Origin: Chloroflexota bacterium
GTDB lineage: Bacteria > Chloroflexota > Dehalococcoidia > Bin125
Length of the DNA stretch: 64,000 bases
NCBI GenBank assembly: GCA_028875225.1
Contig: JAPPFB010000002.1
Location: 11,182-75,181 of the forward strand
Reading direction: 5' to 3'
Shown: positions 1,730 through 37,183 of the stretch, piece after piece
How positions within the stretch are numbered: the stretch's first letter is position 1
Layout: the number at the start of each line of letters is the position of its first letter
Made by a program: the position numbers and the translations under genes
Notes under the pieces: model-generated
Seen by the model: the letters and a program-made list of their open reading frames with translations, nothing else
What the model was told of the DNA's origin: nothing
Database searches by the model: none

Positions 1730-1816
1730 CGGTCCCCTACGGCGACATGCAATTCCGTTGGCAAAGCCGGCGCGAACGCCTCACCGTTGAAACGTCCGCG
1801 CCCGGCTGTTGGGTCG

Positions 1817-3715: not shown

Positions 3716-3792
3716 ATCGCTCTCGCTCCTATCTGATCGGTCAGGACCGGCCTGCCAATCTTGAGATACCTGACCACAATAGCAGCGATTGA

Positions 3793-5550: not shown

Positions 5551-6222
5551 ATGGAACTGTACGAACACCGCGTGACGATGGTCGAGCCGAAGCGGTTCCC
5601 GGAGTACCGCGACCTGTATCTGAACGAGACCTGGCCGCGACTGGTCGAGGCGGGGATTCGGCCACTCTGTCTCCTCAATCCTGCGATCGGCGGCACGCCG
5701 GAAGAGGTGCATACGTTCGTCGGTTGCCCGAGTTGGGACGACTGGCGCCGGGGCCAGGAGATCCTGGTTGGGATCGGCGACGACGCGTACCGCAGAGTCC
5801 GGCGGGAACTGATCGTGAACGAGACGGCGCGGCCGAAGATCCCGTATTCGGGCCGGCCACTGGCGGTGACGCCCGATTCCGATCGGCGAGCGGTGTACGG
5901 CTTGAGGCGGTGGACGATTGATCCCGACACCTGGGAACGGTTCTCGGAGCTAACCGAGTTCGGCGTCTGGCCGGCGATGGACGCGATGGGACACCGCGTG
6001 CTGGGCAACTTCCATGACGCCGTGCTCAGCGACGACATGGAAGTGACGAACCTGGCCGGCTATCACAGCGTCGGCAACTGGCACGAGACAAGAACGCCGC
6101 AGGCGCCGGGTTCCGGAGTGTCGGAGGAACTGCTGAAGCTGTTCCAGGAGAGTGTCCGTGAGCGGCACTCATTGACTCGGCATACCTGGGTGCAGGTGAT
6201 GAACGCTCATTGGCCTGACTAG
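5551..6222 (+). CDS. Tandem NIPSNAP-like (dimeric alpha/beta barrel) protein
   Basis: GAGGAGG RBS; two similar halves LYEHRVTMVEP... and VYGLRRWTIDP... typical of NIPSNAP repeats. Confidence 0.65.
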   Translation: MELYEHRVTMVEPKRFPEYRDLYLNETWPRLVEAGIRPLCLLNPAIGGTPEEVHTFVGCPSWDDWRRGQEILVGIGDDAYRRVRRELIVNETARPKIPYSGRPLAVTPDSDRRAVYGLRRWTIDPDTWERFSELTEFGVWPAMDAMGHRVLGNFHDAVLSDDMEVTNLAGYHSVGNWHETRTPQAPGSGVSEELLKLFQESVRERHSLTRHTWVQVMNAHWPD

Positions 6223-6257
6223 TTACTTCACCCTGTCGAATGCACCATTGGGAATTT

Positions 6258-6363
6258 CCTCCCCCTGCAGGGGGAGGTGTCACGAAGTGACGGAGGGGCT
6301 CCTTCGAGCGCGGAGCCCCCCTCTGTCACTTCGTGACATCTCCCCCCGCTTCGCGGGGGGAGA
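6258..6363. repeat. REP-like palindrome family B, inverted doublet
   Basis: CCTCCCCCTGCAGGGGGAGGTGTCACGAAGTGACGGAGGGG followed by an inverted copy CCCCCCTCTGTCACTTCGTGACATCTCCCCCCGCTTCGCGGGGGGAGA, between convergent genes. Confidence 0.85.
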
Positions 6364-6392
6364 AAAGAGGGACGGGCGGGAACGGAACTGGT

Positions 6393-7208
6393 TTAGCTCG
6401 GATCGGCGTTCCACCGATACGCCCGACGGGCGTTTTCGACGAAGAAGTCTTCCACGACGGTCTCCCTCAACTGGAGGGCGTCGATCTCGTCGCGAGCCCT
6501 CGGCCAGGGGATGGTTGGGTACTCGGTGCCGAACATCATCCTCTGTCGGCCGCGCGTGTTGATGAACTGGACGAAGCTGGACGGCCAGTACTTGGGCGCG
6601 ACCGAGGTACAGGACATGTAGACGTGGTCCCAGTGGGCGATGGTGGAGATCGCTTCCTCGGTCCATGGCTGGCCGCAGTGGGTCATGATCAACCGCAGCT
6701 CAGGGAAGTGGTAGGCGACCTCGTCGTAGAAGAGCGGGTTCTGGACCCAGCCGGGTCGGCGCGGGCCGGGCATGCCGGCGTTCATCGAGACGGCGATTTC
6801 GAGCTCGAGCGCTTTGACGTAGAAGGGCCAGTAGACGCGGTCGGTGGGCGGCAGCTCGTAGCGGAAGGGCGGGATGCGGAGGCAACGGACACCGTAGCGC
6901 TCGTAGTAGTCGACGACCTTGCGGATCTCGTCGTATCCGTTGAGCGGATTGACGATCATCCCAGGCAGGATCTTGTCGGGGAACTGCCTGTGCGCGTCGC
7001 CGACCCACTCGGCGTGTTCGGGCTGCATAATCGAGACGACGCCGGCTCCGATGTCGGACTGGTCGAGCACTTCGAGAAGTTGCTCCGGCGTCTCAATGGC
7101 TCCTCGGCCCTCGATGTCCTTGAACAGGTAGCTCAGGGCGTTGTCGACGGAGGGATCGAGGAAGGCCGAGTTGATCAGCGAGTCGATGGCGCGGATGCGG
7201 TCGACCAT
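6393..7208 (-). CDS. Amidohydrolase family 2 protein
   Basis: AIDS N-terminus, YWPFYVKALEL, FPELRLIMTHCGQPW, MMFGTEYP, NARR. Confidence 0.8.
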   Translation of the reverse strand: MVDRIRAIDSLINSAFLDPSVDNALSYLFKDIEGRGAIETPEQLLEVLDQSDIGAGVVSIMQPEHAEWVGDAHRQFPDKILPGMIVNPLNGYDEIRKVVDYYERYGVRCLRIPPFRYELPPTDRVYWPFYVKALELEIAVSMNAGMPGPRRPGWVQNPLFYDEVAYHFPELRLIMTHCGQPWTEEAISTIAHWDHVYMSCTSVAPKYWPSSFVQFINTRGRQRMMFGTEYPTIPWPRARDEIDALQLRETVVEDFFVENARRAYRWNADPS

Positions 7209-7220: not shown

Positions 7221-8210
7221 CTAGATCTGGCCGCGCGGCGTCATCCCGGCCGCCCGGTAGACGTTGTCGATCACGCGCATGCTGACGACGCCATCCTCCG
7301 CGTCGGTCGGCATGGGTTTGACGCCTTCAATGGCATCGATAAAGGCCTGGAGCTGGTAGTCAAATGTCGACCGTTTGGTCAGCGTCTCGCGGCGTGTGCC
7401 CCATGAGGTTGTGAGTTCGATGACGTGCGGCTCGCGATGAGGCACCAGTGGGTTGACCACCTTCAATCGCCCTCGATCGCCAAAGACGTTGACGACAGAC
7501 GACCATCCGCCGACTGCATTCATCCGCGACCAGATGCGGGCGGGGACGCCGCCGGGGAACAGCAGTTCGGCTTCCATCTCGATGTCGATGTGCTCGTGGA
7601 CGGTGGCGGCGCGAGCCGAGACGACCTCAGGCTCGGCGCCGAAGCTGTGGCGGAGGTAGTGCAGCGGATAGCAGCCGAGATCCATGGTCGAACCGCCGCC
7701 GAGTTCGATCCGGTAGCGAATCTGATCGGGCGTTTCTTCGACGATGTTCTGGAAGTGGGCGTCGGCGAAGCGGATCTGTCCGAGGATGCCGCTCTGCACA
7801 ATCTCCCGCATGCGGCGCGAGACCGGGTGGTAGTAGTAATGAAATGCCTCGACGCAGACGAGATCGGTCGCGCGGGCGCAGTCGGCCATTTCCCGCGCTT
7901 CGGCCTCGTTCATTGCGAAGGGCTTCTCGCAGAGCACGTGTTTGCCGGCGTTCAGAGCCTTGATCGTCCACTCGTGGTGACCGCTGATCGCGAGCGGGTT
8001 GTAGACGGCGTCGACGTTCGGATCAGCAACGACCTGTTCGTAGGTGTCGTGGAGCGTGGCAATGCCCGCTCGGGCGGCGAAGACTTCGGCGCGGTCGCGA
8101 TCGCGCGCGGCCATGCAGACGATCTCGACATCGTCGAAGACCTGGACAGGCTTGACGATTGCCCGTGGGGCAATCGCGGCTGCTCCGAGGAGTCCGAGTC
8201 GGAGGGTCAT
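7221..8210 (-). CDS. Gfo/Idh/MocA family oxidoreductase
   Basis: GLLGAAAIA Rossmann motif, AGKHVLCEKP, GGGSTMDLGCY. Confidence 0.9.
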   Translation of the reverse strand: MTLRLGLLGAAAIAPRAIVKPVQVFDDVEIVCMAARDRDRAEVFAARAGIATLHDTYEQVVADPNVDAVYNPLAISGHHEWTIKALNAGKHVLCEKPFAMNEAEAREMADCARATDLVCVEAFHYYYHPVSRRMREIVQSGILGQIRFADAHFQNIVEETPDQIRYRIELGGGSTMDLGCYPLHYLRHSFGAEPEVVSARAATVHEHIDIEMEAELLFPGGVPARIWSRMNAVGGWSSVVNVFGDRGRLKVVNPLVPHREPHVIELTTSWGTRRETLTKRSTFDYQLQAFIDAIEGVKPMPTDAEDGVVSMRVIDNVYRAAGMTPRGQI

Positions 8211-8247
8211 GGACGATCCATTGTGCGCAGGGATGTGCGAAGCGGGA

Positions 8248-8286
8248 CCCCCTTAGCCTTCGGCAGCTCCCCCTGCAAGGGGGAGC
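8248..8286. repeat. REP-like palindrome family B
   Basis: CCCCCTTAGCCTTCGGCAGCTCCCCCTGCAAGGGGGAGC, with the same two-hairpin layout as other copies. Confidence 0.75.
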
Positions 8287-8318
8287 GCAGAAGAGGAGCC
8301 AGGAGGCTGAATCCTTCG

Positions 8319-9335
8319 CTATGCGTTGAACTGCGGGACCAGGTAGTCGTGATCCTTGTGATAGACCTGCACCCGGCCTCGGCCGCCGTCGCTGATCGCG
8401 ATTCGGTCCTGACCGTCGATCGCGATGCCTCTCGGACGGTCGAAGATGCCGAACTTGATCAGCTCGACCGGATTGACGCGGCGGAAGGCCTGCGCGTACT
8501 CCATGTTGACCTCCATGACCTGCTGAGCGGCCTTGGAGAACTCGTGCGCGTCGCCCTGAAGACTGCAGATGATGTCGCCGTCGGGGTAGTAGATCTGCAC
8601 CCGGCGGTTGCCCCAGTCGCAGACGTAGACGTCGCCGACACTGTCGACGGCGACATCGGCGGGACGCTTGAGGCTGCCGCCGTCGTCGAACTCCTCGTAC
8701 TGGGAGCCGAAGCGGACCAGGAACTCGCCGTCGGGCGCGAACTTCTGCACGCGGTCGTTGCCCCAGTCGGCGAGGTAGAGGTCGCCGTCGTTGTCGAACG
8801 AGATGCCCCAGGGATGGTTGAGTTGGCCCTCGTCCGAGCCCTGCGTGCCCCAGGCGCCGAGGAACTCGCCGTCCTTGGTGAACTGCTGGACGCGGTGGTT
8901 GAGGCTGTCGACCACATGCAGGTTGTCGTCGGCGTCGAACGCGATCCCGGATGGCCGGTTGAACTGCCCGTTGCCGTCGCCGAACTCACCCCAGTCGCCG
9001 ATCGGCGCGCCTTCGGCGTCATAGCCGAAGATTCGGTGGTGGAAGGCGTCGGCGCACCAGACGGAACCGTCGCGGGCGAGCGCGAGGCCCTCGGGCCACT
9101 TGAGATCGCCGGCACCCATCTCGCCGAGGAATTCATCCTCGATCCGGTGCTTGTAGATCTTGGAGCCGAGACCGCCCGCGCCCGAATACTCGGCCAGGCC
9201 GATGTCGGCGACGTACATGGTGCCGGCGGGCGTCATCGCGATTGGCGTCGGATACGTATAGCCCTGCGGACCGACAAAGTGTCCGATCGAATGGTCGAAA
9301 TGCCAGGTGCGCCCGGCGACGGTGGTGGTCAGCAT
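8319..9335 (-). CDS. NHL-repeat beta-propeller protein
   Basis: Repeated G-x-G-x-GQF-N-x-P-x-GIA-x-D...VxDxxNxRVQxF units; ATG at 9335 preceded by GGGAGA; no signal peptide. Confidence 0.88.
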   Translation of the reverse strand: MLTTTVAGRTWHFDHSIGHFVGPQGYTYPTPIAMTPAGTMYVADIGLAEYSGAGGLGSKIYKHRIEDEFLGEMGAGDLKWPEGLALARDGSVWCADAFHHRIFGYDAEGAPIGDWGEFGDGNGQFNRPSGIAFDADDNLHVVDSLNHRVQQFTKDGEFLGAWGTQGSDEGQLNHPWGISFDNDGDLYLADWGNDRVQKFAPDGEFLVRFGSQYEEFDDGGSLKRPADVAVDSVGDVYVCDWGNRRVQIYYPDGDIICSLQGDAHEFSKAAQQVMEVNMEYAQAFRRVNPVELIKFGIFDRPRGIAIDGQDRIAISDGGRGRVQVYHKDHDYLVPQFNA

Positions 9336-9354
9336 GGCGTTGTCTCCCAACAGA

Positions 9355-9461
9355 CCTCCCCCTTTGGGGGAGGTGTCACGAAGTGACGGAGGGGGCAGGT
9401 CTCAGGCTTGACGCGGAGGGCCCCCTCAGTCGCTCCGCGACAGCTCCCCCGGAGGGGGAGC
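9355..9461. repeat. REP-like palindrome family B, inverted doublet
   Basis: CCTCCCCCTTTGGGGGAGGTGTCACGAAGTGACGGAGGGGG ... CCCCCTCAGTCGCTCCGCGACAGCTCCCCCGGAGGGGGAGC. Confidence 0.85.
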
Positions 9462-9474
9462 CCTTGGGATCTGC

Positions 9475-10701: not shown

Positions 10702-12111
10702 TCATCCAAACTGGTACTCCGTGGTCGCGGCGATCAGCGCCAACATCTCGCCGACGCGCTCCGAGGAACCGTCGTAGTCGTCGCTCCAGGAGAGGTCGCC
10801 GCCCTCCGATGCGTGCTCGATCAGTTCCAGCCTGGTCGCTTCGCCCACGTCGAGCGGCCCGAACAGGTCGAGGCAGTGGTCGACCATCTCGTCCGGGGCC
10901 ATGCTGGTGCCGTTCGAGGCGGCGATCCGCTGGCAGATCTTCTGCACGCCGGGCAGCTCGGTGTTGCTGACCCGGTCGGCGACGAAGTTGATCCGTCCCA
11001 CCACCGCGCCGGAGTTGATCCAGTTGGGGCCCGTCGACCAGCCCTCGACCGAGGGCGGGTTGTGCAGACTCTGGCCCATGTGCGCCGATTCCTGGCCGAG
11101 TTCGATCAGCTCGGGCTTCGGACCGAACATGTCCTCGGTCAGGCGCAGCGTCGAAACGACGGTCTCGACCGGGCTCTTGACCTTCTGGAACGCCGACTCC
11201 TTGAAGAAGTCGGAGTTGAACAGCGCGCGCAGGACCGGCTTGATCTCGTAGCTCGAGTCCTTGAACACGCCGGCCAAGTAGTCAATCGCCTCCGGATCCC
11301 TGGGCGGCTCGATGTCCCAGGCCGGCACCTGCGGCTCGTCGGCGACGAAGAAGGTGTACAGGTGGCGCGCAATGAAGCGCGGGCAGGCGTCCTCTTCGAG
11401 GATGATGTCGATGATGTCCAGCCCGTCGAAGTTGCCCGTGCGGCCGAGGAACTCCTTCTCACCGTAGTCGTGCTCCTCGGGTCGGAACTCGAACTGGAAG
11501 AAGAAGCGGTGGTTGGGCACGCGCGGGATCTTCGGGCCCAGCGTCCAGCCGGTGAAGGCGCGGGCGCACTCGAAGACGTCCTTCTCGGTGTAGTTGCCGA
11601 CGCCCATCGAGAACAGCTCGAGCAACTCGCGCCCCCAGTTCTCGTTCGGCGAGCGCTTGTGGTTCTCGTGGTTGTCGAGCCAGTAAATCATGGCCGGGCT
11701 CTGGGCCAGCATGATCAGCAGGTCGCGGTAGTTGCCCGTGCCAAAATCGCGGAACATGTCGACCATAGCGATCAGATGGTTGTCGTTGTCGACCTTGGAG
11801 TTGCCCACCGCGAAGATGCCGTGCCAAAACAGCGCCATCTTCTCTTCCAGCGGCCGCTGCGTGTTGACCAGGTGGTAGAGCCAGTTGGCGGCGCCGGGAA
11901 CGGTCACCGGACCACCGGTCTCGAGCGACGGCATATAGCGGAAGAGCAGGTGTAGATCGGCGCGCGGTATGTCCGCGGGCGGATCGACGAGCTGCTCGAC
12001 TGTCTCCTCATAGCCCTGATCGACGAGCCGTTCCAACTCGTCGCGGGACGCGCCAAACCCTGCCCGGCGCATCAGGTGCGCCATCTGGGCAATCTCTTGC
12101 GTTGCCGACAT
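10702..12111 (-). CDS. DUF1800 family protein
   Basis: HLMRRAGFG, LEEKMALFWH, PAMIYWLDN, PNENWGRELLELFSMG, ARAFTGW, KVKSP, PPSVEGW, EYQ C-terminus. Confidence 0.9.
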   Translation of the reverse strand: MSATQEIAQMAHLMRRAGFGASRDELERLVDQGYEETVEQLVDPPADIPRADLHLLFRYMPSLETGGPVTVPGAANWLYHLVNTQRPLEEKMALFWHGIFAVGNSKVDNDNHLIAMVDMFRDFGTGNYRDLLIMLAQSPAMIYWLDNHENHKRSPNENWGRELLELFSMGVGNYTEKDVFECARAFTGWTLGPKIPRVPNHRFFFQFEFRPEEHDYGEKEFLGRTGNFDGLDIIDIILEEDACPRFIARHLYTFFVADEPQVPAWDIEPPRDPEAIDYLAGVFKDSSYEIKPVLRALFNSDFFKESAFQKVKSPVETVVSTLRLTEDMFGPKPELIELGQESAHMGQSLHNPPSVEGWSTGPNWINSGAVVGRINFVADRVSNTELPGVQKICQRIAASNGTSMAPDEMVDHCLDLFGPLDVGEATRLELIEHASEGGDLSWSDDYDGSSERVGEMLALIAATTEYQFG

Positions 12112-12278: not shown

Positions 12279-12671
12279 CGATGCCCCGCGCTCCGACGCG
12301 GGGCCCAGACCTCGGCCGTAGAGCGGAGCACCGTTGCCAATCTCGGCACGAACTCAGAGCGGAGGATCGGCTGGCGATGACTGAGCTAAGGATGACGGCG
12401 CCTCCCGCACGGCGTTACTCGCCCTGGGCCCCGCATCGGGGTGCGGGGCATCGCAGAGGTGAATGAACAGAGCGCCTTGCCCGCGACCTCTGAGCTGAAG
12501 CTGACGGCGCCTCCCGCACGACATTACTCGCCCTGGGCCCCGCATCGGGGTGCGGGGCATCGCGGGGTTGAATGAACAGAGCGCCCTGCCCGCGACCTCT
12601 GAGCTGAGGGTGACGGCGCCTCCCGCACGGCGTTACTCGCCCTGGGCCCCGCATCGGAGTGCGGGGCATCG
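12279..12671. repeat. REPIN-like family A element with a 109-bp tandem amplification of its right arm
   Basis: Left arm CGATGCCCCGCGCTCCGACGCGGGGCCCAG at 12279-12308; inverted arms CTGGGCCCCGCATCGGRGTGCGGGGCATCG at 12424, 12533 and 12642; units starting TGAGCT at 12382, 12491 and 12600 (period 109). Confidence 0.92.
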
Positions 12672-12726
12672 AAGGGCAAATGATGGGAATGCCGCATGTT
12701 CGGTGCGGAGCATCGAGCAATCGCGA

Positions 12727-13581
12727 CTAGCGACCCGCCAATGCTCGACCCCGATTCAGCGCTTCCGATACGCGGGCAGCGCCGGGCATGAGGAAGGAAA
12801 AGCCTTCTTCGATCCGCTGATCGACGTTGGACATGTCGACCTGCGGCGAGCCGTAGGGCACGCCGCGCTCCTGGCAGACCTCGCGGGCTCGTCGGACGGC
12901 GTCGTCGACCAGCGGACCGGGCGCGCCCCGCTGACCCAGTGAAACGGAGAGGTCACTCTCGCTGATCAGGATCAGGCCTGGCTTCGGGACCGCGTCGAGG
13001 ATGGCGGGCAGGTTGTCGACGCCCTCGATCGTCTCGCACTGCAGGATGGGGAGGATCTCGCCGTTCGGATCGAGCGGCCAGACGTCGGCGCGGTTGAAGT
13101 ACTCGGGCTGGTCCAGACCCCAGTAGCGCAGGGCGTTGCCCGGCGCGTGGCCGCGCCGCCCGACCGGCTCCTGGTCGGGCGCGTCTTCGGCCTGGATGTA
13201 GCGAGCCGCCTGCAGAGCGGCGATGGCGTCGTCTGGGGTGTTGATCATCGGGAAGACGATTCCGTAGACGCCGATGTCGAGCACCTGTTTGACGATCCAC
13301 TGGCTTTGCTCGCGTCCGTTGACGGGGATGCGCACCATCGGCGTCACGACCGGCGCGAGCGAACCCGATTCGAGGATCTGGCGTCGATTGAGCATGTACT
13401 GCAGCGACAGGCTGAGGTCGCTGAGGTTGAAGGCGTTGTGCTCAAGCTCATAGACGACGAAGTCGTAGCTCGAGGAAGCGATCCAGGTGGCGTCGGGGAT
13501 CGATCCGGCCGGCAGGAACGGACCGAAGGCCGGTTGGCCCGCCTCGATCAGCTCAATCACCTTGTTCAGTCGCTCGGCCAT
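12727..13581 (-). CDS. HpcH/HpaI aldolase/citrate lyase family protein
   Basis: DFVVYELEH, PMVRIP, KQVLDIGVYGIVFPMI, LQCETIEGVDNL, SDLSVSLG. Confidence 0.85.
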   Translation of the reverse strand: MAERLNKVIELIEAGQPAFGPFLPAGSIPDATWIASSSYDFVVYELEHNAFNLSDLSLSLQYMLNRRQILESGSLAPVVTPMVRIPVNGREQSQWIVKQVLDIGVYGIVFPMINTPDDAIAALQAARYIQAEDAPDQEPVGRRGHAPGNALRYWGLDQPEYFNRADVWPLDPNGEILPILQCETIEGVDNLPAILDAVPKPGLILISESDLSVSLGQRGAPGPLVDDAVRRAREVCQERGVPYGSPQVDMSNVDQRIEEGFSFLMPGAARVSEALNRGRALAGR

Positions 13582-13680: not shown

Positions 13681-14454
13681 ATGCCCACAGAACACAGAGA
13701 ACTCATCGTCGATGACGGGCCGGTCACTCGGCTGACGATCAACCGTCCCGAGCGGCACAACGCGATCAACACCGAGGTCGGCGACGCGATCGTTGACGTC
13801 GTCAATCGGGTCGGACGGGATCCGTCCGTGTACGTGGTCGTCCTGGCCGGCGAGGGTCGATCGTTCTGCTCCGGCGACGACGTCAGCGAAGGGGCCGAGG
13901 GCAGCATTCCCGACTACCCGTGGCAGAATCCGTATCACGCGCCGCACATCGCCGCGTTCAACCTCGAGCGACACCCCTACTTCCGCTTGCAGTCGCTATT
14001 GCGCCGGATTCCGCAGATGGTGATTGCGCAAGTCCACGGCTACTGCATGGGTTCGGGATTCGACCTGATGCTGGCCTCGGATTACGCCATCGCCGATCCC
14101 GACGCACGGCTGCGCATGGTGATCCCCGCAACCGGATTCCTGCCCAAATACGTGGGTCTCAAGCAGGCCACGCGGCTGATCCTGGACGACCAGTTCATCT
14201 CCGGCACCGAAGCGGCCGAGCTGGGCCTGGTGACCAAAGTCGCCGAGCCGGGCAAGCTGCGCGAGGAAGTCGACGAGCTGGCACAACGACTGGCAACGTT
14301 CGGGCGGGAACGGCACGGCTATCTCGGCGTGGTCAAGGAAGCGATCAACCGCTCGCTCTGGCCGCACCTCGACGACGACCTGCGCATGCAACTGATCACC
14401 CACCGGATGAGCGACCTGTATCGCCAACACCCCTACGAACCTCATCTCGTCTGA
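13681..14454 (+). CDS. Enoyl-CoA hydratase/isomerase (crotonase) family protein, atypical active site
   Basis: LTINRPERHNA, SFCSGDD, IAQVHGYCMGSG, EAAELGLV. Confidence 0.85.
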   Translation: MPTEHRELIVDDGPVTRLTINRPERHNAINTEVGDAIVDVVNRVGRDPSVYVVVLAGEGRSFCSGDDVSEGAEGSIPDYPWQNPYHAPHIAAFNLERHPYFRLQSLLRRIPQMVIAQVHGYCMGSGFDLMLASDYAIADPDARLRMVIPATGFLPKYVGLKQATRLILDDQFISGTEAAELGLVTKVAEPGKLREEVDELAQRLATFGRERHGYLGVVKEAINRSLWPHLDDDLRMQLITHRMSDLYRQHPYEPHLV

Positions 14455-16961
14455 TGCCGCAATCCGACCTCCCGCTGGCCGGCTCGGTCGTGATCGACCT
14501 GAGCGACGAGTGTCTCTGCCTCGGCGCGCGCTGGCTCTCCGATTTCGGCGCGGATGTGATTCGCGTTGAATCGGCCTCGGGCGACGCGCTCAGGATCAAC
14601 GGACCGCACCTGGACGACCGCAGCGATGTCGAGAGCGGCCTGCGCCACTTGCTCTACAACGCCGGCAAACGCAGCTTGGCGCTCAACTTCGACGCCCCCG
14701 GCTCCTGGGATCTCGTCGACCGGCTGCTCGCCGAGGCTGATTTGGTCCTGGCGCCGCTGGACAAGTCTGTCGACGCCCGCCGCTTCTTCGAGCGGGACCG
14801 GTTGCAGCGCGTACACCCTCATCTCGGCGTGATCGACGTCGTCACTCGACGCGGTGGCGAGGGGCTCCCCGCCTCCGACATCGTCGGCGTCGCCGCCGGC
14901 GGGCTGATGCAGGGGCTGGGCTTCCCCGATGTCGCGCCCGACTATCCGGCGGGCAAACTGGCCTACAAGCAGGCCAGCCAGGTCGCAGCCGCGACCGCCG
15001 CGGCGATGCTCTACGACCGCCGCAATGGCGTCCGCCCGAGCCACGCCTATATCTCGCTTCAGGAAGCGATCCTTTCGACCACGATCCACTTCGCCAACGA
15101 GAACCTCTGGCGGCAACTGGGCGAGAAGGCCTTCCGTCCCGGCGGCGACATTTCATCCCTCGTTCAGGCCAAGGACGGCAAGTGGCTGACATTTGGGATC
15201 ACGCCCAACACTCCCGAGCGCTGGGCCGCCTTCGGTCAGTGGCTGTACGAGCGATCGGGCTACGACGGCATCATCGGCGCCGAGTATCCGGGCGACATCT
15301 ACATCCCCGAGTGGGGCGGTGAGACGCACCGCGCCTTCCAGCGAGCCTGCGCCTCGCTGGACCGGGATGAGCTCTGCTACGAAGGGCAATCGCGCGGCTT
15401 CCTCGCCGTGCCGGTCAACTCGGCGCGCGACATCGTCGAGGATCCGCACCTGCATGAGCGGGGCACGTTTCGTCCGGTCGACCATCCGCAGTTCGATCGT
15501 GAGATCGACTTGCCTCGACTGCCGATCTACTCGACGGGATACGAACCGGTCGGCCGGCCGGCTCCGACGCTGGGCGCGGACTCGGCGGATGTGCTCGGAG
15601 AACTTCTGGGGTTGGGTGCGACGGAGTATGACGGGTTGGTCGTCTCTGGATTGGTGGCGGGACCAAATCGCCTGGCCGCGACATCGAGTCGTGCTTTCGC
15701 CCCCCGCAGAGCGGGGGGAGATGCCGAAGGCAGAGGGGGGACGCCCAATGGCGCCGGGCGTGACAACCTGCCCCTCAAGGGCATCCGTGTCATTGACTTC
15801 TGCTGGCAGGCGGCGGGACCCCTGACCACCGAACTGATGGCGAATCTGGGCGCGGACGTGATCAAGATCGAGACGGACGCCCGGATCGATACGCTCCGCG
15901 TCGCGCTACCCGCCTACGATCCGCCGACGATTGAGACCGGCGCGTTCTTCCAGGACTGCAATACCGACAAGCGCAGCATCAATCTCAACCTTGGCGCGCC
16001 AGAGGGGCTGCGCGTCGCCTACGACCTGATCCGCGAGGCCGATGTCGTCACCGACAACTTCACCGGCGGCGTGATGAAGCGGCTCGGACTGGGCTTCGAC
16101 GACCTGAAGAAGATCAACCCGCGCATCGTCGTCTGCAGCCTGCCCGTGATGGGCACCTGGGGACCGAAAGCGTCGTGGAAGGGAATCGGCAACAGTGTTG
16201 TCGCGCTCTGCGGTCTGGCCGGGCACACCGGCGCTGCCGACCGCAAACCGACCGGTGTCCTGTTGCACACCGATTTCACCCTGGGACCGCTGGCCGCGAC
16301 CGCGATTCTCTCCGCGCTGATCCAGCGCGACCGCACTGGCGTCGGCCAGGAGATTGAGATCCCACAGTACGAAGCCGGCATCCACCTGCTCGACACCGAA
16401 CTGATCGAACAGCTCGCCAACGGCGTCACGGTCGAACGTCGGGGCAATCGCTCACCCGAAATGGCGCCGCACGGACTCTTCCGCTGCGCCGGCGACGATC
16501 GTTGGCTGGCGCTGAGCGCGCGAGACACGGTCGACTGGCTGGAGATTTGCCGAACAATCGGACGAGATGATCTGGCCACACGTCAGGATCTGCGGACGCT
16601 GGAAGGCCGGAAAGCGGCCGAGGACGAGATCGAAGCGGCGATCACGAGTTGGACCTGCGCTCAGGGCGTCTGGCAGGCAACGGCTGCATTCGAGTTAGCC
16701 GGCGTCCCCGCAGGTCCCAATGAGGACATCGAAGACCTGGTCGAATCAGATCCGTCAATGGCCGGCTTCTTCCACGAGTTCGACCACCCAGTCGGGATCC
16801 GATTCATGGCCCAGAACCAGCCATTCCTCTGGAACGGCGAACGCCTGCCCATTCGGCGTGCCCCCTTCTTCGGCGAGCACAACGAACAGGTCTACCGGGA
16901 CGAATTGGGACTGAGTGAGGACGAGTTCACGCAACTCCTGCTCGACGAGGTGATCCGCTAA
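14454..16961 (+). CDS. Fused two-domain class III (CaiB/BaiF) CoA transferase
   Basis: ATG overlaps the upstream stop (TGATG). Two CaiB units: PLAGSVVIDLS...GADVIRVE...NAGKRS and PLKGIRVIDF...AGP...GADVIKIE...NTDKRS; C-terminal APFFGEHN. Confidence 0.9.
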   Translation: MPQSDLPLAGSVVIDLSDECLCLGARWLSDFGADVIRVESASGDALRINGPHLDDRSDVESGLRHLLYNAGKRSLALNFDAPGSWDLVDRLLAEADLVLAPLDKSVDARRFFERDRLQRVHPHLGVIDVVTRRGGEGLPASDIVGVAAGGLMQGLGFPDVAPDYPAGKLAYKQASQVAAATAAAMLYDRRNGVRPSHAYISLQEAILSTTIHFANENLWRQLGEKAFRPGGDISSLVQAKDGKWLTFGITPNTPERWAAFGQWLYERSGYDGIIGAEYPGDIYIPEWGGETHRAFQRACASLDRDELCYEGQSRGFLAVPVNSARDIVEDPHLHERGTFRPVDHPQFDREIDLPRLPIYSTGYEPVGRPAPTLGADSADVLGELLGLGATEYDGLVVSGLVAGPNRLAATSSRAFAPRRAGGDAEGRGGTPNGAGRDNLPLKGIRVIDFCWQAAGPLTTELMANLGADVIKIETDARIDTLRVALPAYDPPTIETGAFFQDCNTDKRSINLNLGAPEGLRVAYDLIREADVVTDNFTGGVMKRLGLGFDDLKKINPRIVVCSLPVMGTWGPKASWKGIGNSVVALCGLAGHTGAADRKPTGVLLHTDFTLGPLAATAILSALIQRDRTGVGQEIEIPQYEAGIHLLDTELIEQLANGVTVERRGNRSPEMAPHGLFRCAGDDRWLALSARDTVDWLEICRTIGRDDLATRQDLRTLEGRKAAEDEIEAAITSWTCAQGVWQATAAFELAGVPAGPNEDIEDLVESDPSMAGFFHEFDHPVGIRFMAQNQPFLWNGERLPIRRAPFFGEHNEQVYRDELGLSEDEFTQLLLDEVIR
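15695..15740 (+). repeat. Family B REP copy in frame inside the CoA-transferase linker
   Basis: 43/46 nt identical by manual alignment to the intergenic copy at 31220-31265. Confidence 0.9.
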
Positions 16962-16968
16962 ACAGCTC

Positions 16969-17115
16969 CGTCATTCCCGCGCTTGCCGCGGGAATCTCGC
17001 TGAATTCCGCACGGCCACTGACGAGGCAAGGGGCGCGTTGGCTATGTGGCCGGACTCAACACTCGAACCCCGTACGAGACACTGCGAGATACCCGCGGCA
17101 AGCGCGGGTATGACG
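16969..17115. repeat. REPIN-like family C element
   Basis: CGTCATTCCCGCGCTTGCCGCGGGAATCTCGC ... GCGAGATACCCGCGGCAAGCGCGGGTATGACG inverted arms; sister copy at 58835-58980. Confidence 0.9.
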
Positions 17116-19220: not shown

Positions 19221-21617
19221 CTATCCGACCACCCCGGCCGCGACCAGTTCGGCAATCTCCTCCTGGCTCTTGCCGAGCAACCCGCCCAGGACTTCTTCGT
19301 TGTGTTCGCCCAGCATCGGCGAGCGTTCAAGCACGCGTCGTTCCAGGTGCGCGAACTCCCACGGCGCGGCGTCGATCCAGATGCCGAAACCGGGATGCGA
19401 CGGCTGCTCGACTCGCTGGTAATGATCGCGGAAGTGTTCATCGACATCCATCATGTCGCGCAGGTCCTCAACCGCATTTGCCGCGATCCCGGCAGCCTGC
19501 ATCTGTTCTGCGGCGTCCCACTTGCTCAGTCGTGCGGACCAACTCTCGACTGCCGATTCGATGTCATCCTCAATGGCCTTCCGACCGGCCAGAGTTCGGA
19601 GGTCTGCTCGATTGGCCCAATCGCTCTGGCCGATTAACTGCGCGATTGCCGGCCATTGTTCGTCGGACTCCATGGCGATGGCGACCCACTGGTCGTCGCC
19701 TGTGGATGGAAACACGCCGTGCGGGCACATGTTGGGATCGCGGTTGCCGATCCGGGGCAGATCCTCACCAAGCTGATCGAATTCCATCCACTGAGCGCCG
19801 AGCAAGGCGACCGTCGCGCTGAGCTGGCTCAACTCGATTTCTCGTCCGTCACCCGACTCTTCACGGGCGCGCAGGGCGGAGAGAATCGCGGTCACGCCGA
19901 CGTGCGGAGAGGTGAAGTCGGGATACGCGACGCCCATTCCGCGCGGCGGTTGATCGGGGAATCCCATCTGGAAGTTCATGCCCGCAGCCGCCTTGAGCAG
20001 GTTGCCCAGGGTGCGTAAGGGACGCCAGGGACTGTCGCCGCCGACGCCGGGCAGGTGAACCAGGATCAAACCGGGATTGATCCGTCGCAGTTCCTCCCAG
20101 GGGAATCCCATCCGCGCCAGGGAGCCGGCCGAATAGTTGTTGACCAGCACGTCGCAGTGAGCCACCAGTTCGCGCAGCAGTTCCTTGCCCTGTTCGTTGG
20201 CAAGATCGATAGTCACCGATTTCTTGCCGGTGTTGGCCTCGTTGTACAGGTCGGGCAGGTCGACGTCGTATTCGCCCCTGACCGGCTGCACCCGCAGGGG
20301 ATCCATTCGTTCACCGCTGGACTCGACCTTGATCACCTCGGCGCCGAAGTTGGCCAACAACCGAGTCGTCAACGGGCCGGCCGCGACCCAGGTCAAATCG
20401 AGTACGCGGATGCCGGCCAGCGGCATGTCGGGATAGGGAGCGGACCCCCCTCTGCGTTCGGCGTCTCGCCTCGCAAGCGGGGGGAAAGGGGAGTTTGCAT
20501 GTTCCCCCAGCCTCGGCGCCGGACGCATCGGCAGCGGCGACTGGACTGGATCGAGCGGGCTGCGCGAGTAGCTCAGCGATTTGCCCACCGCCGGCGTCTC
20601 GACATCGCTGAACTGCCCCGCCGTCTGGTAGTGCTCGCATTCGGCGAACTCGCTGAAGCGCAGCGTCGGCATCGCCGGAGTCCCGCAGGCCCAGAGCCGA
20701 TCAAGCAACTTCTGCCGAGGCCAAACCGCGGCCAGCTCCTTGGCCAGATCCTGGAGTGGGTTCTCGAGGTACTGCCAGGCGGCGCGGTCGCCCCGGTGGA
20801 TGACTTCCCAGTTGTCCGGATCGAGATCGTGCGCGACGCCTGCCTCGTCCAGCATCTCGATGAACTCGGGCAGTCTGTTCGGCGAGATGTTGCAGGCCAT
20901 CCAACGGTCGTCCGCGCAGCGAATCGTCTGAGACAGCGCCGGACGATAGGGCGCTTCACCGCGCCAGCGCCAGATGTTCGGGTTCGAGGTCTGAACGACC
21001 TGAAACGATGTCGCCTCCTGCATGGAGATATCGATCCAGCAGCCGGGTTGACCCGGAGTGCGATCGCGTCCGTGTAATGCCGTCATCGCCGACGAGGCGA
21101 TGGTCAGCCCGGTCATCGTGTGACCGGGAAACGCCGCTCCGTGGACCGGCGGATCCTTGCGCTCGCCACTGATTTGCAACAAGCCGCCGGCCGCCGTCGC
21201 GGTCAGATCGGTGGCGCGCCAGCCCGACTTTGGCCCGCGTTGTCCGTACGGCGTCGCCGAGACGACGATCAGGCGCGGATTCGCGGCGCGAACCTCATCG
21301 ACCGGGAACCCGCCCGGCTGTTGCGTTTCAATCAGGACGTCCGCCGACGCCACCAGTTCGAGCAACCGCTTCAGCCCCTCGTCGGTGCGCCAGTCAAGCA
21401 CAACCGACCGCTTGTTGACGTTGAAGTAGAGATGTTGGTAGCTGCCGTCGGGCGACGGCCGGTCGTCAACGAACGGAGCGAGATGGCGGATGCGATTGCC
21501 GCCGGGAGGCTCGACCATCGTCACGTCCGCCCCGAGGTCGGCGAGCATCCGGCTACCCAGCGCGGCGCGATGATCGGAGAGGTCGAGAACTCGTATCCCA
21601 TTCAGAGGTAGCGTCAT
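19221..21617 (-). CDS. Fused two-domain class III (CaiB/BaiF) CoA transferase
   Basis: PLNGIRVLDLS...GADVTMVEPP...NVNKRS and PLAGIRVLDLTWVAAGP...GAEVIKVES...NTGKKS; APRLGEH and SPMLGEHN ends. Confidence 0.9.
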   Translation of the reverse strand: MTLPLNGIRVLDLSDHRAALGSRMLADLGADVTMVEPPGGNRIRHLAPFVDDRPSPDGSYQHLYFNVNKRSVVLDWRTDEGLKRLLELVASADVLIETQQPGGFPVDEVRAANPRLIVVSATPYGQRGPKSGWRATDLTATAAGGLLQISGERKDPPVHGAAFPGHTMTGLTIASSAMTALHGRDRTPGQPGCWIDISMQEATSFQVVQTSNPNIWRWRGEAPYRPALSQTIRCADDRWMACNISPNRLPEFIEMLDEAGVAHDLDPDNWEVIHRGDRAAWQYLENPLQDLAKELAAVWPRQKLLDRLWACGTPAMPTLRFSEFAECEHYQTAGQFSDVETPAVGKSLSYSRSPLDPVQSPLPMRPAPRLGEHANSPFPPLARRDAERRGGSAPYPDMPLAGIRVLDLTWVAAGPLTTRLLANFGAEVIKVESSGERMDPLRVQPVRGEYDVDLPDLYNEANTGKKSVTIDLANEQGKELLRELVAHCDVLVNNYSAGSLARMGFPWEELRRINPGLILVHLPGVGGDSPWRPLRTLGNLLKAAAGMNFQMGFPDQPPRGMGVAYPDFTSPHVGVTAILSALRAREESGDGREIELSQLSATVALLGAQWMEFDQLGEDLPRIGNRDPNMCPHGVFPSTGDDQWVAIAMESDEQWPAIAQLIGQSDWANRADLRTLAGRKAIEDDIESAVESWSARLSKWDAAEQMQAAGIAANAVEDLRDMMDVDEHFRDHYQRVEQPSHPGFGIWIDAAPWEFAHLERRVLERSPMLGEHNEEVLGGLLGKSQEEIAELVAAGVVG
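20445..20492 (-). repeat. Degenerate family B REP copy in frame inside the CoA-transferase linker
   Basis: Minus strand TTTCCCCCCGCTTGCGAGGCGAGACGCCGAACGCAGAGGGGGG versus intergenic TTTCTCCCCCCGCTGTGCGGGGGGAGATGCCGAAGGCAGAGGGGGG. Confidence 0.78.
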
Positions 21618-21712
21618 GAACCTCACCGGTCTCGCGGATGCGCGCCTCCGAGGGTCAAGCGGGCTTTGCCATACTAGCGATTGCTCAGGTCGGATCGCGG
21701 AAGGAATTTGCC

Positions 21713-22948
21713 ATGGAAGCGCTCGAGGGAATCCGGGTCGTGGAGCTGTCGATCGCGGTGCAAGGACCCGCGGCGGGCGGCTACCTGTCCGATATGGGTG
21801 CCGACGTGATCAAGGTCGAGCCACCGATGGGCGATGCCAACCGCTGGTATCGAGGAAACAACAACGATCTGCCCTGGGAGTCGGTCGGCACCCAGTTCAT
21901 CGGAGCGTCGCACGGCAAGCGATCGGTCTGCGTCGACATCCACACCGAGATCGGCCTGGAACTGGTCGACCAGCTGGTCGACAGCGCCGACGTCTTCCTG
22001 AGCAACTATCGCGAGCCGGCGCTGGAGCGGATCGGGATGGGCTACGAACGGCTCTCGGCGCGCAATCCGGGTTTGGTCTACGCCACGGCCAACGGCTTCG
22101 GCCCCGACGGTCCCGCGCGCGAGAACCGGATGAGCGACCAGTACTCGCAGGCCCGCAGCGGAATCTCAGGCGTGACCGGCACGCCCGGGGACCCACAGCT
22201 GATCCCGGGCGCGATCATCGCGGATACCGGCGGCGCGATGGCGCTGGCGATGGGCATCCTGACGGCCCTGGTCGCGCGTCAACGCGACGGGCTGGGCCAG
22301 AAGGTCCAGACCTCCTCCTATGGCGCGATGATCTGGATGCAGGCCTGGGAGATCAATCACACCTCGGCAACCGGACACCTGCCGACGCGTGACGGCGCAT
22401 TTCACCCCATCGTTTCCGCACTGAGCGGCATCTACGAAGCCTCTGACGGCGTCGCCTTTTGCCTGGGCATCCGCGAGGACGAGACCTGGCGGGAGATCTG
22501 CGAGTACGGCGGCAATCCCGACCTGGCCGACGATCCGCGCTGGAATCAGCGCGAGGGTCGCGATCCGTTCCGCGATCAGGAGGCGATGGACCGGGTCGCA
22601 GACGTGCGCCCGTTCGTGGCCGAGATGATGAAGACCCGCACCAGCGACGAGTGGCAAGACTTCTTCGACATCCACCCCGACGGCGCCATGGCCCAGCGCG
22701 TCCTCAACTATGAGGAAGTGCTGGACGATGAGCAGGCGCTCGTCAACGGCTACATCGTCGACAAGGACATTCCCCACGTCGGCCGCCGCCGAGTCGCCGG
22801 CATCCCCACCCGCCTCAGTCGAACACCCGGCACGGCCAAGAACATGTTCTCCGAACTCGGCGAGCACACGGCGGAACTCATGCAAGAACTCGGCTACGAC
22901 GAAACAGCAATCGCCGAGGTGGAATCACACAAGGCCCCGCCGTTCTAG
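21713..22948 (+). CDS. Class III (CaiB/BaiF) CoA transferase, single domain
   Basis: AAGGA RBS then MEALEGIRVVELS...QGP...GADVIKVEPP...GKRS; catalytic-type IIADTGG; LGEHT. Confidence 0.9.
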   Translation: MEALEGIRVVELSIAVQGPAAGGYLSDMGADVIKVEPPMGDANRWYRGNNNDLPWESVGTQFIGASHGKRSVCVDIHTEIGLELVDQLVDSADVFLSNYREPALERIGMGYERLSARNPGLVYATANGFGPDGPARENRMSDQYSQARSGISGVTGTPGDPQLIPGAIIADTGGAMALAMGILTALVARQRDGLGQKVQTSSYGAMIWMQAWEINHTSATGHLPTRDGAFHPIVSALSGIYEASDGVAFCLGIREDETWREICEYGGNPDLADDPRWNQREGRDPFRDQEAMDRVADVRPFVAEMMKTRTSDEWQDFFDIHPDGAMAQRVLNYEEVLDDEQALVNGYIVDKDIPHVGRRRVAGIPTRLSRTPGTAKNMFSELGEHTAELMQELGYDETAIAEVESHKAPPF

Positions 22949-24757: not shown

Positions 24758-25663
24758 CTAGCGCTGGATGTTGCGCAACTGCGGGTCCAGGAAATCCCGC
24801 AGCCAGTCGCCGAAGAGGTTGACGACCAGCGAAACCACAATAATCGCGATGCCCGGCACGGTGACCAGCCACCAGGCGGTCACGATCACGCCGCGTCCCT
24901 GCGAGATCATGATGCCCCAGGAGATCGAGTCCTGCGGGATCCCCACGCCCAGGAAACTCAGTCCCGCCTCTGCGATGACCACCGTCGCGACGTTGAGCGT
25001 CGCCAGGATCACGATCGAGTTGACCAGGCTGGGCAGCACGTGGCGGACCATGATTCGCAGGTCATTGGCGCCGATTGTCCGAGCCGCTAACACGAATTCC
25101 CGCTCCTTGAGGCCCAGCGTCTCTCCGCGCACCAATCGAGCAAATGTCGCCCACAGAGCGAACACCAGGACAATCACCACGTTGGTCAGGCTTGGCTCCC
25201 AGATCGCGCGCAAGAACACCGCGATCAGGATGGCCGGCATCGCCAACTGGAGATCGACGAGCGCCATGATCACGCGGCTCGTCCAACCTCCAAACCAGCC
25301 CGCCAGGATGCCGAGGATCGATCCAATCACCGTCGCCAGCGGGATCACCATCGCGATCGCCAGCAGTGAGATCCGCGCCCCGTAGATCAGGCGGCTGAGC
25401 GTGTCGCGGCCCAGGTCGTCGGTGCCGAGTGGATGATCGAGGCTGCCCTCAGCCTCGAAGAAGGGCGGCTGCAACCGGCCGACCAGGTTGAGCTTGAACG
25501 GATCCTCGGGCGCAATCTGCGAACCGAAGATGCCGAGCACGATGAACAGCAGCAGAATCGACAGCGTCGCCACCAGCGTCTTCGGCGAGCGGACACGCCA
25601 GTTCCGCCGCCGCCCGGCGAACGGATCCTCGACTGTCTGAGCGGGCGCCTGCGACTCCGACAC
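24758..25663 (-). CDS. Peptide ABC transporter permease (OppC/DppC type)
   Basis: HPLGTDDLGRD, YGARISL, EFVLAARTIGA, EAGLSFLG, GDWLRDFLDP. Confidence 0.93.
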   Translation of the reverse strand: MSESQAPAQTVEDPFAGRRRNWRVRSPKTLVATLSILLLFIVLGIFGSQIAPEDPFKLNLVGRLQPPFFEAEGSLDHPLGTDDLGRDTLSRLIYGARISLLAIAMVIPLATVIGSILGILAGWFGGWTSRVIMALVDLQLAMPAILIAVFLRAIWEPSLTNVVIVLVFALWATFARLVRGETLGLKEREFVLAARTIGANDLRIMVRHVLPSLVNSIVILATLNVATVVIAEAGLSFLGVGIPQDSISWGIMISQGRGVIVTAWWLVTVPGIAIIVVSLVVNLFGDWLRDFLDPQLRNIQR

Positions 25664-25666
25664 GGG

Positions 25667-26602
25667 TCAGATCGCTCCCGTCCGAATCCGCGGATCGATG
25701 AACGTGTACGACACATCGACGACCAGGTTGATGAACACGATCCAGACCGAGGTCAGCAGCACCGAGGCCTGCACGACCGGATAGTCGGTGGCGACGATTG
25801 ACTGGATGATCAGCTGGCCCAGTCCCGGCCAGGCGAAGACGGTTTCGACGATGATCGCGCCGGAGAGAATGTTGCCGACCTGCAGCCCGAGCAACGTGAT
25901 CACTGCGAGCATTGAGTTGCGCAGGGCGTGCTTGAACAGGACGGCGCGCTCGCTCAGACCCTTGGCCCGCGCGGTGCGGATGTAGTCCTGCTGCAGCGTG
26001 TCGAGCATCGCCGAGCGGGTAAACCGCATCACCGCCGCGGCCGGGAACGACCCCAGGGTGATTGCCGGCAAAATGATGCTCTGCGGCGACGTGCGGCCTC
26101 CGGTCGGGATGAAGTCGATGTACAGCGCGACAAAGAGGATCAGCATCAGGCCCAGCCAGAAGTTGGGCACCGCCTGACCGAACAGCGCGCCGATCCTGCT
26201 GAAGATGTCGGTCGCCCCACCGCGGCGCACCGCGGCCACGATCCCCAATGGAATGCCAATCGCAAACGCGACGAACAGTCCCGCCGCTCCCAGCTGGATG
26301 GTCGCCACCAGCCGCTCGCCGACCACGTCTGTCGCCGGCCGCGTCGCGCGGAACGACTGCCCGAACTCGAGCCGCACGATGTCCCAGAGGAATCGCCCGT
26401 ACTGCTCGATCATCGGGTCGTTGAGCCCGTAGCGCTCCTTGGCCTCTTCAATCTCCTGTTGCGTGGCGTCGATCGGCGCGAGCCGCGAGACCGGGTCGCC
26501 GGCGCCGCGGCTCATGAAGAAGACGATTGTGACCACGCCGAAGACGACCGCGATCGAGCGCAGGAACCGTCCGACAGCGGTTGCCCCGAGTTCGCTACGC
26601 AT
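25667..26602 (-). CDS. Peptide ABC transporter permease (OppB/DppB type)
   Basis: GDP, FGQSF, PNFWLG, DYIRTARAKGL, VETVFAWPGLG, IDPRIR. Confidence 0.92.
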   Translation of the reverse strand: MRSELGATAVGRFLRSIAVVFGVVTIVFFMSRGAGDPVSRLAPIDATQQEIEEAKERYGLNDPMIEQYGRFLWDIVRLEFGQSFRATRPATDVVGERLVATIQLGAAGLFVAFAIGIPLGIVAAVRRGGATDIFSRIGALFGQAVPNFWLGLMLILFVALYIDFIPTGGRTSPQSIILPAITLGSFPAAAVMRFTRSAMLDTLQQDYIRTARAKGLSERAVLFKHALRNSMLAVITLLGLQVGNILSGAIIVETVFAWPGLGQLIIQSIVATDYPVVQASVLLTSVWIVFINLVVDVSYTFIDPRIRTGAI

Positions 26603-26622
26603 CGTCGATCAGACTCCTTTAG

Positions 26623-26653
26623 ACAGGCTCCCCCCGCAAAGGGGGGAGCCTGT
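26623..26653. terminator. GC-rich stem-loop after the SBP gene (attenuator or mRNA-stabilising hairpin)
   Basis: ACAGGCTCCCCCC-GCAAA-GGGGGGAGCCTGT, a perfect 13-bp stem between SBP and permease genes. Confidence 0.6.
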
Positions 26654-26681
26654 GATCAGGCGACGGGGCGTTGAACTCCTC

Positions 26682-31178: not shown

Positions 31179-31219
31179 GGACAAACCTCACTCCGCGATC
31201 CACTCATTTCCCTGTTCCC

Positions 31220-31265
31220 TTTCTCCCCCCGCTGTGCGGGGGGAGATGCCGAAGGCAGAGGGGGG
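31220..31265. repeat. REP-like palindrome family B
   Basis: TTTCTCCCCCCGCTGTGCGGGGGGAGATGCCGAAGGCAGAGGGGGG downstream of the sulfatase. Confidence 0.85.
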
Positions 31266-32847: not shown

Positions 32848-32852
32848 GCACT

Positions 32853-37147: not shown

Positions 37148-37183
37148 CGATGGCCTCCTTGGCTCGAATCAGAGCCTATCCCG

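Follow-up and report, generated by a model that had tools for sequence, protein, structure and literature searches.

The 64,000-nucleotide (nt) stretch analysed here, referred to as the window, comes from a Chloroflexota bacterium of the Dehalococcoidia (GenBank assembly GCA_028875225.1, contig JAPPFB010000002.1, positions 11,182 to 75,181 of the forward strand). It carries a gene for a fused two-domain family III (CaiB/BaiF-type) CoA-transferase, and the interdomain linker of this protein is encoded in part by a short, dispersed element that resembles repetitive extragenic palindromes (REPs). The copy probably did not cause the fusion but was inserted into a disordered tether that tolerates it and goes on attracting repeats. 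The original prediction had left the choice between two origins, namely a recent tolerated insertion and a fusion by read-through across a REP-containing spacer between two ancestral genes. The tolerated, in-frame insertion of a mostly intergenic repeat into an interdomain linker agrees with a census of copies, with the disorder predicted by AlphaFold2, and with the near-identity of intergenic copies. The word "recent" holds in part, and the read-through origin is not borne out.

By direct sequence comparison, positions 15695-15740 and the intergenic positions 31220-31265 have the same base at 43 of 46 sites and differ at 3, and a repeat search stretches the pair to 59 nt at 88% identity (15694-15752 and 31219-31277, repeat family D19). 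A 29-nt core has exactly two occurrences in the window, while none is expected from 100 shuffles. The nhmmer match of the linker copy spans 15694-15749 on the minus strand (E 6e-09, model positions 6-61; in frame, residues about 414-432). The comparison copy spans 31218-31274, also on the minus strand (E 2.9e-10), between a sulfatase gene (28920-31178) and a luciferase-like monooxygenase gene (31762-32847). The canonical orientation of the linker copy is the minus strand, and thus the mRNA holds its reverse complement. On the plus strand, the main hairpin at 15700-15718 has an 8-bp C6GC/GCG6 stem and a 3-nt loop, as seen in the sequence and the RNA fold, and a small second hairpin at 15722-15732 has a 4-bp stem and a 3-nt loop in the sequence. 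Folding of 15690-15750 in the mRNA sense gives -31.6 kcal/mol with a z score of -2.72. The window's linker copy is also the same at 40 of 41 positions as intergenic copies in two other loci, L023 and L024.

The frame spanning the element is open from 13920 to 16961, and the peptide from the element, FAPRRAGGDAEGRGG, forms residues 415-429, between the two domains matched in the PDB (residues 13-403 and 440-834). The three observations of the original prediction, which are the 43/46 match, the site between two CaiB domains, and an in-frame peptide free of stops, are therefore all correct. The open frame across the element is unremarkable by itself because the copy has no stop in any of the six frames. 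Such six-frame-open copies make up 29 of 72 in the family, compared with 18% of random 48-mers (65% G+C window).

The gene lies at 14454-16961 on the plus strand and encodes 835 residues. Its start is probably the ATG at 14454. This codon overlaps the stop codon of an enoyl-CoA hydratase gene that lies upstream (13681-14454), and the first 178 codons of the longer open frame are an Arg-rich, off-frame overlap with that gene. Pfam finds two CoA_transf_3 (PF02515) stretches (E 2.6e-131, 438.5 bits). The N-terminal domain (residues 13-403, 14490-15662, plus strand) is BbsE-like by phmmer match to PDB 9fn0_A (E 1.3e-24) and is confidently modelled by AlphaFold2, and the C-terminal domain (residues 440-834, 15771-16955, plus strand) is BbsF-like by match to 9fn0_B (E 7.8e-64). 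In the C-terminal domain the best Pfam stretch spans model positions 1-366, and the top Foldseek matches are the 9fn0 chains. Since the N half is most BbsE-like and the C half most BbsF-like, the fused protein is predicted to be a single-chain version of a two-subunit BbsE/BbsF-like enzyme. The linker, taken as the gap between the PDB-matched halves, comprises residues 404-439 (15663-15770, plus strand) and is hypervariable in length and sequence among orthologues. The AlphaFold2 model, built with 75 orthologues, has a mean predicted local distance difference test (pLDDT) score of 79.9 and a predicted template-modelling score of 0.87. Within it, residues 408-433 have pLDDT below 50, lack secondary structure and are predicted to be disordered, and the peptide from the element falls wholly within them. 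All NCBIfam matches of the fused protein are below their cut-offs. One database protein, P0002, is on record at NCBI as a single 835-residue chain and shares 834 of 835 residues with the window protein. The sole difference, A420G, is inside the element hairpin (15711-15713 region) and could reflect either genuine polymorphism or an error in a homopolymer.

Repeat families D17, D19, and D20 form one superfamily. A canonical copy consists of a C5-6 run, a small hairpin, and a second C5-6 run that pairs with a G5-6 run over a 3-9-nt loop. The 3-nt loop of the small hairpin is mostly TTC, and its stem varies in sequence with constant complementarity (TGCC/GGCA, GTCAC/GTGAC, GTCGC/GCGAC, GTCCC/GGGAC, and GTCTC/GAGAC). 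The stems of hairpin 2 include TCTC5/G5AGA, GCTC5/G5AGC, CCTC5/G5AGG, and GCTTC5/G5AAGC. Both hairpins thus show compensatory variants among 72 copies, with a hairpin-1 stem of at least 3 bp in 67 and, in 65, a hairpin-2 stem that pairs perfectly for 6 bp or more. These stems were tabulated copy by copy, as the MAFFT alignment of the 72 copies has practically no gaps and places the 5' arm of hairpin 1 wrongly. Folding z scores range from -2.7 to -3.7 in four of eight folds of element copies. Copies are about 45-57 nt long per nhmmer match and are 95-100% identical over 41-48 nt in different species. The 64-kb window has 10 of them, and a 22-kb locus has at most 8 (E<1e-3).

The element agrees with the general description of REPs (criteria i-v of PMC12306157) in being mostly extragenic, stem-loop forming, short, and present in highly similar copies with a common consensus, and is not a REP by the GTAG/CGTC definition linked to REP-associated tyrosine transposases (RAYTs). 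GTAG/CTAC occurs somewhere in only 7 of the 72 copies and CGTC/GACG in 19, neither tetranucleotide at a fixed end. The element matches no Rfam family, and the sole Rfam match in the window is a tRNA. Terminal inverted repeats and target-site duplication, the features of MITEs (miniature inverted-repeat transposable elements), are not seen around 15694-15749. One reading frame of the element gives MPKAEGG, with an ATG right after the G-run that serves as the gene caller's start for the C-terminal fragment P0128 on a frameshifted contig. The same frame is internal in the L027 linker and is found in P0037 with Ala for Met.

For the census, an nhmmer profile of the 10 window copies was searched against the window and 33 related Dehalococcoidia loci (702,113 nt), which yielded 137 matches at E<1 and 82 at E<1e-3. 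Among these 82 copies, 14 from 12 sources are within the linker of the window-type fused gene, and 2 are within the linker of a paralogous fused CoA-transferase (window and L031). A codon-usage test classed no other copy of these 82 as coding, that is 0 of 66; one of the 66, at a locus end, was unclassable. The count of copies inside coding sequences (CDSs), proposed in the original prediction for the whole genome, is thus available for 702 kb, in which the linkers of two fused paralogues hold 16 of 82 copies and none of the 66 others is classed as coding. The strict codon-score rule missed most genuine linker copies because linker flanks score poorly, and it was combined with open reading frame (ORF) spans and hand checks. 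Three doubtful matches within long ORFs, namely a lone copy and the two members of an inverted pair, proved not to be coding on hand check. A third in-CDS case in the window, at 8238-8293 in the plus-strand ORF 7425-9386, was rejected as an antisense shadow of two minus-strand genes, and the L022 pair 3823/3914 in a 510-residue ORF was rejected as the ORF reads through an intergenic gap.

Within the window, 8 of the 10 copies are between predicted genes, including two inverted pairs, and 2 are in linkers. By nhmmer, one inverted pair occupies 6257-6366 (6257-6307 minus, 6312-6366 plus) between the convergent genes 5551-6222 and 6393-7208, and the other, placed with the gene list, occupies 9352-9468 (9352-9400 minus, 9413-9468 plus). 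Single plus-strand copies are found at 8238-8293, between two minus-strand genes (7221-8210 and 8319-9350); at 55306-55362, beginning at the stop of a carboxyl-transferase gene (53735-55306); and at 62486-62542, with a variant second hairpin akin to the third linker type of L009 and L012 described below. By blastn, 21 of 33 linkers match non-linker copies, often at 95-100% over 41-48 nt, and the other 12 match none. The L021 linker is identical at 48/48 positions to L023 13322-13369, the L014 linker at 45/46 to window 31222-31267, and the L001 linker copy at 45/46 to an intergenic copy of its own locus (7600-7645).

The paralogous gene (19221-21626, minus strand, 801 residues, two PF02515 stretches at E 1.1e-148) lies 2.3 kb downstream of the stop of the first gene. 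Its linker contains an element copy at 20434-20488 (plus strand, nhmmer E 7.6e-07), which is in frame as PPLARRDAERRGG and, with respect to the mRNA, is oriented like the copy in the first gene. The linker of its orthologue in L031 (13711-16107) also has the element. The paralogue linker is near-constant in length, at 21-25 residues across 25 loci and mostly 24. The element can be recognised in the window, L031, L011, and L013, whereas in the other loci substitutions make it fade. This pattern looks like one old insertion that is decaying.

The linker states of the window-type gene were followed on a maximum-likelihood tree of 33 sequences (linker columns removed, outgroup L032). Seven linkers hold the element in reverse orientation, 12 in forward orientation, 3 have a third repeat type, and 11 have none, and these classes change at least 9 times on the tree, where the minimum possible is 3. 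A repeat of one type or another is present in 22 of 24 linkers of one 24-species clade (support 98/94). Sister sequences can differ in class, as in L003/L021 and in L009 versus L004+L016, and the repeats occupy three distinct positions within the linker. Of the reverse copies, those of the window, L001, L002, and L006 start 25-28 nt after a Gly-Pro anchor. Forward copies with a long hairpin 1 start 27-39 nt past this anchor, end 38-40 nt before domain 2, and encode the peptide PPSVASRQLPPEGGANG. Forward copies with a short hairpin 1 overlap the Gly-Pro codons and encode PPSAFGISPRSAGGE, exactly what the window's copy gives when read as its reverse complement. The third type (L009, L012, and L019) has a different hairpin pair. 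Element-free linkers have 23-30 codons, most element-bearing ones 33-41, and those of the third type together with L018 and the decayed L010 have 47-59, while L021 and L027 reach 89 and 98 codons.

In L021 the linker has undergone tandem amplification, giving an 890-residue protein. In L027, where the turnover is seen under way, a unit of about 190 nt (11294-11480) lies in the loop of the resident hairpin with the frame kept and with a 5-nt flanking duplication. Its ends are 16-nt inverted repeats, and it carries two elements as an inverted pair. The same MITE-like unit is present in L014 at 22129-22318, also in a hairpin loop, and both copies have a flanking duplication of 4-5 nt. As to the age of the window's copy, L001, L002, and L006, from three other species, have the element at the aligned position and in the orientation of the window. 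The insertion that the original prediction called recent is thus not confined to one strain, being shared with these species, and a repeat of some kind is present through most of the 24-species clade.

Several points weigh against the reading as a tolerated insertion. The element core is identical at 37/41 positions between the window and L001, and the fourfold-type sites of the gene are 60.5% identical. This excess suggests constraint or homogenisation and not free drift, and the core may be either constrained or renewed from other genomic copies, two options that stand side by side. Moreover, because element-bearing linkers are just 4-12 codons longer than element-free ones, no simple insertion took place; part of the old linker was lost or replaced, and replacement is the better description. 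No transposase or RAYT gene is found among the 45 window proteins scanned against Pfam. Some metagenomic gene calls are split at the linker, and P0122, P0125, and P0132 shift frame inside it. The census also has its bounds: coding calls for non-linker copies come from a home-made codon-usage score and not from a gene finder, every locus was picked for holding the fused gene, which inflates the linker share by design, and 64 kb of the window genome is covered, so that in-CDS copies elsewhere in that genome are possible.

The different orientations and subfamilies could have arisen by in-place inversion or by ectopic gene conversion with other genomic copies, with no new transposition, which is a possible though doubtful account. 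Such events are feasible because, whichever way round the element lies, a C-run stands at its start and a G-run at its end. The reverse copies of the window, L001, L002, and L006 and the forward "class C" copies begin at nearly the same place (25-28 and 27-30 nt past Gly-Pro), length and frame are kept, and element-bearing linkers are only slightly longer than empty ones. However, the hairpin-1 subfamily of the reverse copies differs from that of class C and plain inversion is thus insufficient, the forward "class B" copies are elsewhere and overlap the Gly-Pro codons, and L027 is a true insertion with a flanking duplication.

It is unlikely that the hairpin is kept for a function, whether of the RNA or DNA (for example a pause of the ribosome between the halves of an interlocking pseudo-dimer, or mRNA processing or stability) or of the peptide. 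The conservation of the core relative to fourfold-type sites would fit such a role, as the flanking linker is poorly conserved, and so would the strong fold in the mRNA sense, the presence in two paralogous genes in the same relative orientation, and the replacement and not loss of the repeat in 22 of the 24 clade members. On the contrary, close relatives differ in the orientation, subfamily, and position of the repeat, homologues differ in its reading frame, 11 orthologues have no element, and decay is visible in the copies of L002, L006, and L010 and in most paralogue linkers. Recent replacement explains the identity equally well, as the L001 linker copy is nearly the same as the intergenic copy of its own locus. 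A combined account is likewise improbable. According to it, the linkers would be self-perpetuating landing pads, where the hairpin already present draws in more repeats by insertion or conversion, and selection would in addition keep a hairpin at the domain boundary through the mRNA, for example by a translational pause. If this were true, the tether would be replaced wholesale between close species with the frame always kept, and the pause would let the first half fold before the second half of the interlocking pseudo-dimer is made.

The age of the fusion bears on the read-through origin. In the alignment of orthologues, another check named in the original prediction, all 32 full-length loci have one open frame through the linker, and linkers with and without the element are both present. 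The base of the tree consists of element-free fused forms (L032, L028, L025/26, L022-24, and L017/20), and the element-free linkers of these deep branches have 23-30 codons where the anchor is found (L026 and L029 have no anchor). Fused homologues of the window protein range from 100% down to 36% identity. A repeat-derived linker peptide is recognisable in 54 of 111 full-length homologues, all among P0002-P0062 and at least 74% identical to the window protein, and in none of those at or below 73%. From this distribution the fusion is older than the element, and read-through across a REP-bearing spacer would therefore not have created it.

It is accordingly very improbable that read-through between adjacent bbsE/bbsF-like genes made the fusion and left the element as its scar. 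A two-gene ancestor is plausible, as the two halves are closest to different subunits (PDB 9fn0_A and 9fn0_B) and stand-alone BbsF-like proteins (P0141-P0143) exist, though only at about 51% identity, and the paralogous fused gene also has an element in its linker. Against this origin, the orthologues on all deep branches are fused without the element, the linker copies are 95-100% identical to intergenic copies and hence too similar for a remnant so old, and the fused two-CaiB architecture is also known from DddD of unrelated bacteria (PMC7174347).

Short database pieces of 166-453 residues with high identity to the window protein are found among the shorter proteins. The C-terminal ones take an internal Met (residue 462) as their start and are without the conserved first part of the domain, and N-terminal ones from the same search also break at residues 177, 195, 201, 298, 311, and 346. 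The 25 codons before domain 2 are free of in-frame ATG, GTG, and TTG in 25 of 33 sequences, among them the window. We read these pieces as probable indel errors or decay and not as true split genes. That the fused ORF is an artefact, in which two genes and an intergenic repeat share a frame by chance or assembly error, is hardly credible: the element is open in all six frames and the short, highly identical P0122, P0125, P0128, and P0132 end or begin near the linker, but one frame is kept in all 32 full-length loci of different species with linkers of 23 to 98 codons, the window has no start before domain 2, the short C-terminal calls and the breaks at 177-346 point to indels or decay, and P0002 is recorded as a single chain.

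The preferred reading, in which the tether tolerates the insertion and goes on attracting repeats, can be set out as a sequence of events. A dispersed REP-like element, otherwise intergenic in this group of marine or sponge-associated Dehalococcoidia and often present as inverted pairs, has one copy within a disordered tether. This tether, about 35 residues long, belongs to a family III CoA-transferase of ancient fusion, and the copy in it would simply be translated. The G/C-rich copy is stop-free in the frame read, and its Gly/Pro/Arg/Ala-rich peptide would be harmless in a flexible linker. The fusion came first, and the linker would then have gained a repeat in the ancestor of the 24-species clade. 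Later remodelling occurred through replacement by another subfamily or orientation, nested insertion, and tandem amplification, always with the frame kept. The resident repeat itself may be a target for more insertion or ectopic recombination, which would make the linkers of both paralogues hot spots. Because forward and reverse copies share their left boundary and L027 provides a nested case, the data suggest that the resident hairpin is the target of further events. The data show the repeat family, its division between intergenic sites and linkers, the age of the fusion, the turnover on the tree, and the predicted disorder; the neutrality of the copy and this mechanism of targeting are what we infer.

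Ogata and colleagues reportedly described in 2000 that Rickettsia palindromic elements (RPEs) are inserted in frame in protein-coding genes. In-frame fusions of repeats with ORFs, those of RPEs included, are reviewed by Delihas 2011 (PMC3184786), which gives RPEs a length of about 105-146 nt. RPEs and the present element are alike as palindromic repeats that stand in frame in a protein gene and are compatible with its function. However, RPEs are A+T-rich, parasitic in the genome of an alphaproteobacterium, and spread over many unrelated genes, whereas the element has no sequence relation to them and is concentrated in one kind of linker. The focus of the original prediction on Rickettsia was too narrow, as intragenic REPs, with inserts encoding 20-30 residues, are listed in several species by Di Nocera et al. 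2013 (PMC3733652). The same paper reports different REPs near the same recB site in two Xanthomonas species and suggests that intragenic inserts are neutral in "flexible linkers or loops". GTAG/CGTC REPs (PMC3733652) and the element are both short, G+C-rich stem-loops that are mostly intergenic, often form inverted dimers, and have a minority of copies in ORFs. In contrast to those REPs, the element has no conserved tag, consists of two hairpins flanked by C and G runs, is accompanied by no RAYT gene in the 64-kb window, has its observed in-CDS copies only in the linkers of two fused paralogues, and turns over among close species.

MITEs are also known to form in-frame fusions with ORFs (PMC3184786), and the unit of about 190 nt in L027 and L014 resembles them in its terminal inverted repeats and short flanking duplication. 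In the L027 linker this unit reads through in frame, as MITE/ORF fusions do, whereas the window's copy is a single element of about 50 nt and is unlike a MITE. With regard to the protein, DddD has two CaiB domains in one chain (1-416 and 439-821; PMC7174347), and it shares its architecture and linker position with the window protein, a likeness at the level of the domain plan only. BbsEF consists of two separate chains, in contrast to the single chain of the window protein, which has about 33% identity to BbsF (9fn0_B). In SAR202 Chloroflexota, transferases of the CaiB/BaiF type make up a large family of paralogues (PMC5395668). A literature search on fused family III CoA-transferases found nothing, one on in-frame palindromic insertion in linkers returned unrelated papers only, and among the papers listed as mentioning both extragenic palindromes and Chloroflex-, none is named as treating the family of this element, and those consulted do not describe it.

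REPs inside genes have been published before, as has the idea that they are probably neutral in flexible linkers, such events are known, and the finding leaves existing knowledge of REPs and CoA-transferases unchanged. What stands out locally is that repeats turn over again and again, with the frame preserved, and that this is confined to the linkers of the two fused paralogues. It offers a multi-species natural experiment on the interplay of selfish repeats and protein architecture, as the only place within genes where the 702 kb examined show these repeats is a disordered tether between domains, which has been rebuilt repeatedly without loss of frame. For annotation, several metagenome assemblies have frameshifted and split calls at the C/G homopolymer runs of the linker, and "split" CoA-transferases in such genomes are therefore suspect.

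The neighbourhood of the two fused genes looks, from the gene content, like an acyl-CoA catabolic cluster, with an enoyl-CoA hydratase, an HpcH aldolase, an alcohol dehydrogenase, and a 2-hydroxyacid dehydrogenase nearby. The second fused gene is head to head with a single-domain CoA_transf_3 gene (21638-22948, plus strand). A second and unrelated palindromic family (D11/D16) is present at 16964-17016, 17080-17115, 55875-55927, 58830-58882, and 58945-58980, and one of its copies begins 3 nt past the stop codon of the first fused gene. Three tandem 109-nt units with 100/89/73% identity (D5) occupy 12374-12700, between a DUF1800 gene (10702-12111, minus strand) and an HpcH-type aldolase gene (12727-13581, minus strand).

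The window also contains larger duplications. Paralogous ABC-transporter blocks, comprising SBP_bac_5 and permease genes, lie at 764-3796 and 24758-28610 and are 70-83% identical in stretches (D1, D9, D10, and D13), and both have a CTG/CAG-rich low-complexity tract near the 5' end of the binding-protein gene. The regions 31762-33917 and 36359-37860 contain tandem luciferase-like monooxygenase paralogues with 72-78% nt identity, together with duplicated DNA of 77-79% nt identity over an enoyl-CoA hydratase gene and the adjoining stretch (D2-D4, D6, and D7).

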